64,000 bases of DNA. Source: Candidatus Uhrbacteria bacterium (GTDB lineage Bacteria > Patescibacteriota > Patescibacteriia > UBA9934 > GWF2-40-263). The DNA is taken from the NCBI GenBank assembly GCA_016188495.1, contig JACPHU010000029.1, positions 11,136 through 75,135 of the forward strand, given 5' to 3'. Each line of letters starts with the position of its first letter. Within the stretch, counting starts at the first letter, position 1. Below the pieces are notes generated by a model, which was not told where the DNA came from, did no database searches, and saw only the letters and a program-made list of their open reading frames with translations. The translations under genes were made by a program, and so were the position numbers. Shown here piece after piece: positions 19,318 to 21,537 of this stretch.

Positions 19318-21363
19318 TTATAATTGTTTGAAAGACACGGTTGTTGCGCTTCCATTTGTCGTACTGGAGTTCGGAGGTATCTTGATAGCCGCAGTATTTC
19401 CTGCCGCAGCATTCACACTCACGAGTGAATTGGGGGAAGTTGTTTCAATAATAACACTACCGAACGCTGGCCCATTGGGAGATTTCCCAATCATTGAATA
19501 AGACAACGGCATCATAGTCTCGATCGTCGATCCCATATAGAGCACAATTCCTCCATCTGTAGGATAAATCATTTGATAATTGATTTCATATCTTCCGATA
19601 TTTTCAAGAGTAAATACCGTACCGCTTGCAGTGAAAGGTGGATTGAAAACGGCTGTAGATGAGGTAATCCCAGGTGTTGATAAAATGGTTGTTGAGTAAG
19701 TAAACGGCTGACCAGCACCAACGGTAGCTGGCTGAGAACCGAGTTGAACATACTGTGCTGAAAGGATAGAACCAGCCGGTCCCGTTGCGCCGGTGGCACC
19801 TGTTGCTCCTGTAAGGCCCGTGAGACCCGTAAGTCCAATCTCACCAGCAAGACCAATGGGTCCAGTAATCCCTATGGGTCCTGTAAGCCCAGTTAGACCT
19901 GTCAATCCGGTAATTCCTGTCAATCCAATCTCACCGGTTTCACCGATGGGACCGATAGTTCCCGTGAGACCGATCGTACCGGTTGCACCCGTTGCCCCTG
20001 TTTCACCTGTCGCTCCGACTGAGCCTTCAAGGCCTGTAAGACCAATGGGTCCAGTGAGTCCTAGCGGACCCGTGATACCAATAGGACCTTCAGTTCCGGT
20101 AAGACCCGTAAGACCCGTAAGACCCGTAAGACCAATCTCACCGGTTTCACCGATTGGACCGATAGTTCCCGTGAGACCGATGGAGCCTGTTTCACCCGTG
20201 GCACCGGTCAGACCTATGGATCCTGTAAGTCCTGTAAGACCAATGGGTCCAGTGAGTCCAATAGGACCTGTTGTTCCAATGGGTCCAGTGAGTCCAGTGA
20301 GTCCTGTAATACCTGTCAATCCAATCTCACCGGTTTCACCGATGGGACCGATAGTTCCCGTGAGCCCTATCGTACCGGTGGCACCAATAGGGCCGGAAAG
20401 ACCTGTGAGACCAATGGGTCCAGTGAGTCCAATAGGACCTGTTGTTCCAATCGCTCCTGTAAGTCCAGTGAGTCCAGTTAACCCTGTAATTCCCGTCAAT
20501 CCAATCTCACCGGTTTCACCGATGGGACCGATAGTTCCCGTGAGCCCGATCGTACCGGTTGCACCCGTTGCCCCTGTTTCACCAATGGGTCCAGTAAGTC
20601 CTGTTTCACCCGTAGATCCAGTGAGTCCTGTAAGACCAATGGGTCCAGTGAGTCCAATAGGACCAGTAATGCCGATGGGTCCAGTTAGGCCGGTCAGTCC
20701 TGTAATTCCTGTCAGACCGACTTCGCCTGTTTCACCGATGGGACCGATAGTTCCCGTGAGTCCTATCGTACCGGTGGCACCGGCAGGTCCTGTCAGACCT
20801 GTTATGCCTTGAAATCCCGTGAGTCCAATAGGACCAGTAATGCCGATGGGTCCAGTTAGGCCGGTCAGTCCAGTTAACCCTGTAATACCTGTCAAACCGA
20901 CCGCTCCTGTGGCTCCAACGGTTCCGATCGTGCCCGTGAAATCGATGGTACCAATGACATTCTGTGAAGAAGTGGTTGTTGAGGTAGTAAGAGAACAGTT
21001 CTCAACGAGAAGATTCAAATAAGATCTTGTGATTGGGCCAACAATCCCTACAGAATCAATACCCTCTTGTTTTTGGTAACGAATAACAGCCTCTTGGGTT
21101 AGTGATCCAAAATATCCTGTGACTAATCCTTCTGGATAGATTCCGGGGAGTTGCCTAAGTACATCCTGTAACCACTTGACTTGAGTATCCTTCATTCCAA
21201 ACGAGAGTGTTTTTGTAAACTTAGGACATGGAGCTAATTGGGGCATGAATATCCCTCCGGCCTCAGCGATCGTAACGGAGGAGAACGTAAGGGGCAAAAA
21301 GAGAAATAGACCAAGAACAATTCTAATTTTTGTATGAAAAATGACGCCAATTTTTCTTTTCAT
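19318..21363 (-). CDS. secreted collagen-like triple-helix repeat protein with peptidoglycan-binding domain and BclA/C1q-like C-terminal domain
   Basis: Signal peptide [35 protein letters not shown] from ATG 21363 (the listed ORF extends to a GTG at 21495). PG_binding_1-like segment ([29 protein letters not shown]). About 375 aa of GXY repeats. Thr/Ser-rich globular C-terminus. Confidence 0.8.
19809..20937. repeat. near-perfect nucleotide tandem repeats encoding the GXY collagen-like region
   Basis: Units such as ccaatctcaccggtttcaccgatgggaccgatagttcccgtgag recur many times. The antisense 339-aa PVRPV ORF is the mirror frame. Confidence 0.8.
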
Positions 21364-21537
21364 ATTTATAGTAGTTTTATTCCATGATACAGGATAAATA
21401 GAATGCATGCGATTCGTTGGTGTCTTTACTTTGCAGTCATGGTAATGACAACGTACCAGTAAACGAAATCGTTCCAAATATCGCATCCATAGCACCCCTC
21501 CTAAAAGAAAAAATCACCAGATGAACTGATGATTTTG

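Follow-up and report, generated by a model that had tools for sequence, protein, structure and literature searches.

BclA, the collagen-like protein of the Bacillus exosporium, differs between strains in its number of Gly-X-Y triplets, and this number sets the length of the filament. In the BclA-type design, the N-terminus sets the docking site (ExsF or the pili known as endospore appendages, ENAs), the number of triplets sets the length and a C1q-like head forms the tip (PMC12357932). Here we describe a gene for a collagen-like protein of related build in a 64,000-nucleotide stretch of DNA (hereafter, the window; positions 11,136 to 75,135 of contig JACPHU010000029.1, assembly GCA_016188495.1). 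The window belongs to a metagenome-assembled genome (MAG) of Candidatus Uhrbacteria (locus tags HYV70_), an uncultured lineage of the Candidate Phyla Radiation (CPR) and not a spore-former. How the ultra-small CPR bacteria (Patescibacteria) attach to their partners is, to our knowledge, largely unknown, and pili have been studied most. The most likely full coding sequence, 19318..21363 on the minus strand, begins at ATG 21363 and specifies 681 amino acids and a stop codon. Its product is probably a secreted, cell-wall-anchored, trimeric collagen-like fibre or adhesin of the Uhrbacteria cell.

The C-terminal head (19321..19764, minus strand like every part of this gene; 148 amino acids) links the protein to these systems by fold. 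An AlphaFold2 (AF2) model of the monomer, built on the homologue alignment, was all-beta with nine strands of at least three residues (predicted local distance difference test, pLDDT, 91.6; predicted template modelling score, pTM, 0.88). In the PDB, the top Foldseek match was F-BclA (9h38), the tip fibrillum of the F-ENA of Bacillus thuringiensis, with E = 3.3e-9 and template modelling (TM) scores of 0.70-0.80 across chains. Further top matches were BclA (2r6q, 3tyj), ExsFA (7r5i), C1q (1pk6), the NC1 domains of collagens VIII and X, and APRIL and other ligands of the tumour necrosis factor (TNF) family. Foldseek assigned a probability of 1.00 to 9h38, 2r6q, 3tyj, 7r5i, 1pk6 and 1gr3 (TM 0.62-0.80). 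The predicted head is thus a jelly-roll that superposes on BclA, C1q and TNF heads. Ser and Thr make up 26% of it. The initial annotation, made from the sequence alone, had proposed a Thr/Ser-rich, BclA/C1q-TNF-like C-terminal domain and had named structure prediction as a check, and the proposal held for both composition and predicted fold. All of the best PDB matches of the head are trimeric collagen-tip or TNF-family heads. By analogy, the head would form a homotrimer that nucleates the triple helix, and it likely sits at the distal tip.

The N-terminal part of the protein bears the marks of export and wall binding. By eye, we read a Sec-type signal peptide of 35 amino acids (21259..21363), with a MKRK n-region, a hydrophobic core and a predicted signal peptidase I site, AEA|GG. 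The Sec signal proposed initially is borne out by the homologues, which begin alike and have A-x-A motifs of their own at the corresponding place (VQA|G, TLA|G, THA|G, LKA|G, VNA|Q). The signal peptide has no lipobox Cys, and the protein ends ...TTVSFKQL with no C-terminal LPXTG, so PG_binding_1 is the sole remaining anchoring module. This domain (PF01471; 21025..21189, aa 103-157 when counted from GTG 21495) scored 41.5 bits against a Pfam gathering cut-off of 23 (E = 1.6e-10). The AF2 model of residues 36-143 contains three helices and has a pLDDT of 82.8 overall and above 90 through the domain core. Its Foldseek matches included CtpB (4c2e), a Clostridioides difficile PG-binding protein (5tv7), a Streptomyces DD-peptidase (1lbu) and SleB-N (6tci), as well as PG-binding domains of phage endolysins. 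Sequence and predicted fold together confirm this three-helix bundle as a predicted peptidoglycan-binding domain, in agreement with the initial annotation.

Cys46 and Cys123, as counted from ATG 21363, lie on either side of PG_binding_1. Among 16 homologues, both are present in eight, 77-83 amino acids apart, both are absent in the other eight, and none has a single Cys. This all-or-none pattern suggests a disulfide. The pair (within 21025..21230) would be compatible with a disulfide clamp or with a knot that joins the chains at the foot of the stalk. In several homologues, a QQLQQRxxxLE coiled-coil segment precedes PG_binding_1 instead of the Cys pair. Between PG_binding_1 and the stalk lies a linker of 20 amino acids (20935..20994), 55% of them Ser or Thr; the pLDDT below 50 at model residues 93-100 is consistent with disorder.

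The stalk (19765..20934) is a single unbroken run of 130 Gly-X-Y triplets (aa 188-577 in GTG numbering), five more than the roughly 125 given initially for the same collagen region, and the window holds no second run of this kind. It scored 197.5 bits with Pfam Collagen (PF01391; cut-off 27.2, E = 2.2e-59). Thr occupies the Y position in 78 of the 130 triplets (60%) and Ile in 40, and the X position is held by Leu in 47, Pro in 24 and Glu in 15. At 0.28 nm per residue, the figure we adopted from work on Bacillus fibrilla in which 701 collagen residues span 196 nm (PMC12357932), the 390 stalk residues are predicted to form a triple helix of ~110 nm.

We next consider how the DNA of the stalk is organized. 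It splits into six higher-order units of 54-72 amino acids (162-216 bp) that have a common motif and pairwise DNA identities of 61-89%. Tandem Repeats Finder reported period-180 arrays (1.9-3 copies, 71-89% matches), and the sole perfect short array was a 9-bp unit in 3.9 copies. The longest exact repeats are 53 bp (offsets 171, 180 and 396 bp), and a 50-bp repeat occurs at an offset of 576 bp. Tandem repeats are therefore present, as first described, but "near-identical" overstates their likeness. The strongest offsets are all multiples of 9 bp, and recombination between repeats would therefore alter length in frame, with no on/off switching. With units of 61-89% identity and in-frame offsets, the stalk does not have the near-perfect, expression-switching repeats of a contingency locus, and "phase-variable", the term used in the initial annotation, is a misnomer.

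Part of the gene was recovered independently. Two Logan contigs (L038 and L039; SRR12113418/19) are 100% identical to 18137..19945 and 18137..19882 of the window. Because they reproduce the window sequence exactly, the 3' third of the gene is independently confirmed. Both contigs break inside the 53-bp exact repeat of the stalk; Logan assembles with k-mers of ~31, and a 53-bp repeat exceeds the span of so short a k-mer.

The position of the start codon was a real ambiguity, as the initial annotation had noted. The open reading frame (ORF) on the minus strand, 19318..21495, is present as listed and comprises 725 amino acids when counted from GTG 21495; ATG 21486, ATG 21408 and ATG 21363 are further in-frame candidates. 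All 15 full-length homologues compared, from genomes and metagenomes, start directly with Met and an n-region rich in Lys or Arg, after which come a hydrophobic core and an A-x-A site; none of the 15 has an N-terminal extension. A Shine-Dalgarno-like motif precedes only two or three of 26 other well-defined genes in the window, most of which have AT-rich leaders, so the lack of such a motif before ATG 21363 is no argument against it. Finally, a terminator-like hairpin with a T-run (21536..21510, minus strand) adjoins the AGGAGG-GTG site, directly upstream of the extension. Given the unextended homologues, the scarcity of Shine-Dalgarno motifs and the hairpin abutting the GTG site, we take ATG 21363 as by far the likeliest start, which yields the 681-amino-acid precursor, and we rejected GTG 21495 and ATG 21486 despite the nearby AGGAGG. 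The AGGAGG itself (21502..21497) is best spaced, at 6 nt, for the out-of-frame ATG 21490 and not for GTG 21495. That ATG opens an ORF of 17 codons (region 21437..21536, minus strand), which could be a leader peptide or a product of chance. The 44 in-frame codons from GTG 21495 (21364..21495) are probably an untranslated leader or a promoter region.

The opposite strand of the stalk contains an ORF of 339 amino acids (19793..20812, plus strand), Pro-Val-rich with a "PVxPV" pattern, which is a shadow of the collagen codons. Elsewhere it matched only the antisense strand of collagen genes, and we rejected it as a gene; the conserved domains that flank the stalk sit on the minus strand, opposite this ORF. 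Gene callers could mistakenly annotate it, since it is a by-product of Gly-X-Y codons.

The protein belongs to a family that is conserved and has no informative name in the sources searched. Its last 150 residues retrieved 45 homologues, nearly all metagenomic, and those named by their source were labelled "hypothetical protein". A full HMMER scan of 1.84 billion representative sequences returned 278 relatives, 42 of them at E <= 1e-30. Of the 150 top-scoring matches listed, the ones whose alignment extends to the end of the head profile stop no more than a few residues before the C-terminus of the protein. The common order is signal peptide, an optional coiled coil, PG_binding_1, collagen and head. 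We found this full architecture in Gracilibacteria (code 25), Wolfebacteria, Falkowbacteria, Nomurabacteria, Adlerbacteria, Paceibacterota, Parcubacteria and P0143, as well as in several metagenome contigs and in two MAGs labelled Gammaproteobacteria (labels unverified). In the collections searched, and leaving aside the two Logan fragments, the closest other head was 78% identical among proteins and 84% identical in metagenome contigs. We found no synteny between the window locus and the homologous loci.

Stalk length differs widely within the family. The orthologues have 19, 47, 52, 53, 64, 69, 77, 84, 88, 104, 105 or 144 triplets, compared with 130 in the window gene. Two Wolfebacteria genes (L020, 3143..4456, and L021, 2777..3838) are identical save for a 252-bp in-frame indel, which gives 47 triplets in one and 19 in the other. 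The indel is bounded by a 41-bp exact direct repeat, and its flanks are 99.6-99.9% identical. Repeat-mediated recombination would be expected to leave such a trace, but the repeats could also have collapsed during short-read assembly. The suggestion that these stalks are prone to changes in length is thereby supported indirectly. L020 also holds additional, tandemly related sequence upstream of the Wolfebacteria gene.

Free variation of stalk length among orthologues would also suit a different role, in which a dense brush of ~110 nm fibres forms a protective or spacing nap, whether as a hydrated barrier against phage, grazers or desiccation or as a spacer between cells, in the manner of the BclA nap on spores. 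The build matches that of BclA, whose nap is largely structural, and stalk and head are as rich in Thr and Ser (25-26%) as one sees in heavily glycosylated nap proteins; the Thr residues of this fibre may likewise be glycosylated. In contrast, glycosylation genes were not found among the neighbouring ORFs scanned, and the head is unusually conserved, with 59-81% identity between remote lineages and viruses; this would suggest that a particular ligand or interface is conserved. We consider a nap unlikely and prefer the adhesive fibre.

The following sequence of events would produce such a fibre. The precursor would be exported by Sec and then cut by signal peptidase at AEA|GG. Three chains would join through their BclA/C1q-type heads, and zipper-like folding of the 130-triplet, Thr-rich stalk would follow, giving a rigid helix of ~110 nm. 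The three PG_binding_1 domains of each fibre would grip the producer's own peptidoglycan non-covalently, with the Ser/Thr linker crossing the wall. The head, at the distal tip, would most likely act as an adhesin, directed at partner or host cells or at sister cells, unless the fibres instead make up a hairy nap. Over evolution, stalk length could be tuned by in-frame recombination between internal repeats. CPR cells are usually quoted as ~200-300 nm in diameter, and a ~110 nm fibre would amount to a sizeable fraction of that. The locus thus offers a concrete candidate for a CPR surface adhesin, a wall-plugged collagen fibre with a highly conserved BclA/C1q-like tip.

The same head also occurs on other anchors. 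In Babeliales/Dependentiae it is preceded by 88-204 triplets and by an N-terminal domain of another kind, and in a Chitinophagaceae MAG it sits directly on a non-collagen N-terminus. Among the viral models in BFVD, the head of a Solivirus collagen protein (A0A3G5AJ93) is 63% identical (TM 0.95) and that of a Sylvanvirus collagen protein (A0A3G5AHP4) 47% identical. A 391-kb IMG/VR contig (L017) encodes a collagen-stalk protein whose head is 70% identical to that of the window. At 2259..6453, this contig has two adjacent collagen paralogues with a common Cys-rich N-terminus and different heads, one of them of the window type; judged from the sequences, heads appear to have been swapped on what is probably the genome of a giant virus. 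The anchors differ by bearer: CPR proteins have PG_binding_1, viral ones have a Cys-rich domain and the remainder have other modules.

Because the head family pairs with bearer-specific N-termini in viruses, Dependentiae and Bacteroidia, we take the N-terminus to be the anchor on the bearer's side. These pairings bear on an inverted or bridging arrangement as well, in which PG_binding_1 would act as a grappling hook on host peptidoglycan while the head is kept on the CPR surface, for example by an S-layer, or in which the protein is released as a cross-linker. CPR are generally thought to be episymbionts that need a grip on host envelopes, PG_binding_1 binds peptidoglycan of any source and the protein has no covalent anchor, all of which would suit a hook. 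The bearer-specific N-termini argue for the opposite polarity, as do the solved analogues, which dock by the N-terminus and hold the C1q-like head distally (PMC12357932). An inverted fibre is improbable in our judgement, and we retain the orientation with the N-terminus in the producer's wall. The swappable anchors seen here parallel the N-termini of Bacillus BclA-type proteins, which decide the docking site (PMC12357932).

Across CPR, Dependentiae, Bacteroidia and viruses, pairwise identity of the heads is flat at 59-81%, regardless of taxonomy; examples are Uhrbacteria-Gracilibacteria (80%), Babeliales-Wolfebacteria (77%) and viral contig-Babeliales (77%). This flatness points to strong constraint combined with horizontal exchange, although contamination of bins could contribute. 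A more far-reaching idea, which we hold to be doubtful, is that the head is a horizontally mobile "fibre-tip" module passed among CPR, Dependentiae/Babeliales, Bacteroidia and giant viruses, and fused in each to the bearer's own anchor. Dependentiae/Babeliales are parasites of amoebae, and an unusually conserved head is common to CPR, giant viruses and amoeba-associated bacteria. If the tips bind a common ligand, such as a protist surface, a phagocytosis receptor or a widespread envelope glycan, they would be a candidate route by which CPR grip or enter their partners. Such a shared-ligand family, if true, would connect CPR ecology with protist-associated microbes and giant viruses.

Several observations weigh against a wall-anchored fibre with a BclA/C1q-type tip. 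In sequence, the head reached only 14.8 bits (E = 0.027) with Pfam BclA_C (PF18573), compared with a gathering score of 38, and the family profile had no match among PDB sequences, so the head is tied to BclA and C1q by fold comparison only. One homologue (P0030) scored 28.6 bits on BclA_C, likewise below the gathering score. The family profile does reach distant relatives that contain BclA_C, two of them above the cut-off (P0227, 40.7 bits; P0270, 42.6 bits); because only such distant members pass, the link in sequence between the head and BclA_C is transitive only. Taking fold and profiles together, we regard the head as a divergent branch of the BclA_C/C1q-TNF superfamily. On the side of the anchor, PG_binding_1 is best known for targeting wall hydrolases and not for anchoring fibres, and that it binds the producer's own wall rather than a foreign one is an assumption. 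No glycosyltransferase was found among the neighbouring ORFs scanned. The repeat region comes from a short-read MAG, and the exact number of triplets could be misassembled. Finally, the sequence before ATG 21363 yielded nothing resembling a promoter, and exact look-ups with six in-frame starts did not find the protein in the public protein collection.

The last two of these points, together with the breaks of the Logan assemblies in the repeats, could also be taken to mean that the gene is silent, decaying or misassembled and has no current function. Against this, the frame of 681 codons is intact, the 130 triplets are unbroken and the two flanking domains are well folded and conserved. The head is 59-81% identical across the family, and the Logan breaks fall on the 53-bp exact repeat. 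We think it extremely improbable that the gene is defunct, and continue to favour an exported, wall-bound fibre.

The surroundings of the gene introduce one more alternative. The neighbours encode a YdcF/DUF218 protein, hypothetical proteins, an alpha/beta hydrolase, methyltransferases and LysE. Also nearby lie a DNA-methyltransferase-like ORF (22440..23375, plus strand; NPPF motif, PHROG 5172 and 799) and a transposase of the IS1595 family (23941..24798, minus strand), with an ORF of 173 amino acids between them. The collagen gene thus has mobile or accessory DNA next to it. This non-syntenic setting would be compatible with cargo of a phage or mobile element, in particular a prophage tail fibre made of a collagen stalk and a receptor-binding head; the strongest PHROG matches of the protein are to tail-fibre families, and its BFVD matches include many phage collagen-repeat proteins. 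However, the best stretches of the 25 PHROG families listed lie in or overlap the Gly-X-Y region, which indicates composition bias, and the neighbouring ORFs scanned did not include phage structural, packaging or lysis families. A cleavable Sec signal peptide is normally missing from virion proteins, and the architecture is kept in many CPR genomes whose contexts differ. With PHROG matches driven by collagen and no phage structural families in the scanned neighbours, we rejected the prophage explanation as very improbable.

Other features of the window were recorded in passing. A hypothetical protein of 170 amino acids (21733..22245, minus strand), for which neither Pfam nor PHROG gave a match, falls in a cluster of at least 90% identity with 133 members from Uhrbacteria, Taylorbacteria, Campbellbacteria and unclassified bacteria; its conservation across CPR classes suggests a mobile gene. 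An ORF of 59 amino acids (18896..19075, minus strand) overlaps the start of the YdcF gene and resembles the N-terminal fragment of a haloacid dehalogenase (HAD)-type hydrolase (IKAIFWDAEGVV). Logan assemblies also annotate this ORF as a gene, and when the antisense ORF and three small ORFs close by were looked up exactly, it alone gave a match; most probably it is what remains of a larger gene. At 2648..8237 (minus strand), a 974-amino-acid adenylation-thiolation-reductase protein resembling nonribosomal peptide synthetases is accompanied by a methyltransferase and a glutamine-hydrolysing asparagine synthase; such biosynthetic genes are unusual in a CPR genome, given its reduced size. A beta-CASP/metallo-beta-lactamase nuclease (636..2003, plus strand) resembles Cas14 of type VII CRISPR systems at a score below the cut-off (377 vs. 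800 bits). In the region 36951..49542, a RecB nuclease of the TM0106/Cas4-like kind occurs with a restriction-modification system of type I (HsdM-like, 39394..41433; HsdR, 45116..48070) and with a large serine recombinase (48208..49542). Together with the nuclease at 636..2003, this content looks like a defence or mobile island.

How does this protein compare with described collagen-like proteins? Collagen-like proteins with C1q-like heads were known already; what is new is the anchor of PG_binding_1 type, the range of CPR hosts and the existence of relatives in viruses and Dependentiae. The word "peptidoglycan" is absent from the text of a 2022 review of prokaryotic collagen-like proteins, and in the searchable literature we found no paper that reports such proteins from CPR bacteria. 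"BclA-like", the name first given to the protein, fits its build and not its identity. No exosporium leader or ExsFA/BxpB docking motif was found, the N-terminus consists of a Sec signal and PG_binding_1 and the organism is a CPR bacterium known from a MAG, so this is neither BclA proper nor an exosporium protein. What appears to be shared is the plan of dock, collagen stalk and C1q head, which would extend beyond the spores of Firmicutes.

Among surface-exposed collagen-like adhesins of bacteria, streptococcal Scl1 and Scl2 and Legionella Lcl are similar in the varying length of their collagen. The Scl proteins have a C-terminal LPXTG anchor and an N-terminal variable head, a polarity opposite to that of the protein described here. 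Their NCBIfam equivalog models gave scores well below threshold (NF038329, 196.5 vs. 325; NF038330, 196 vs. 400), as did that of Lcl (NF046116, 261.7 vs. 500 bits), whose best stretch, aa 185-391, lies in the Gly-X-Y region. All three models match mainly through that region. The collagen proteins of giant viruses (Solivirus, Sylvanvirus and L017) carry the same head family on a Gly-X-Y stalk and have no PG_binding_1; there, the bearer would be the virion and not a cell wall. In animals, C1q, the NC1 domains of collagens VIII and X, and adiponectin have the same jelly-roll after a collagen stalk as a C-terminal unit of trimerisation and recognition, but C1q/TNF heads are only 10-18% identical to this one, and the kinship is visible at the level of the fold only.

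The nearest counterparts are the Bacillus proteins. BclA of the B. anthracis/B. cereus exosporium nap (2r6q, 3tyj) likewise has an anchored N-terminus, a stalk with Thr at the Y position and a C-terminus of TNF/C1q fold. It is 14% identical to our protein and has GPT repeats, whereas here Leu predominates at X and the Y position is held by Thr or Ile. F-BclA and L-BclA, which form the tip fibrilla of Bacillus ENAs (9h38; PMC12357932), are similar in their N-terminal docking module, in a Thr-rich stalk of variable length and in a conserved, trimeric, C1q-like head at the distal tip, and F-BclA is the closest fold to this head. At 17% identity, however, F-BclA docks on the F-ENA pilus of Firmicutes spores by a hook peptide and has no signal peptide, whereas the Uhrbacteria protein combines a Sec signal peptide with PG_binding_1 in a CPR host that does not sporulate.

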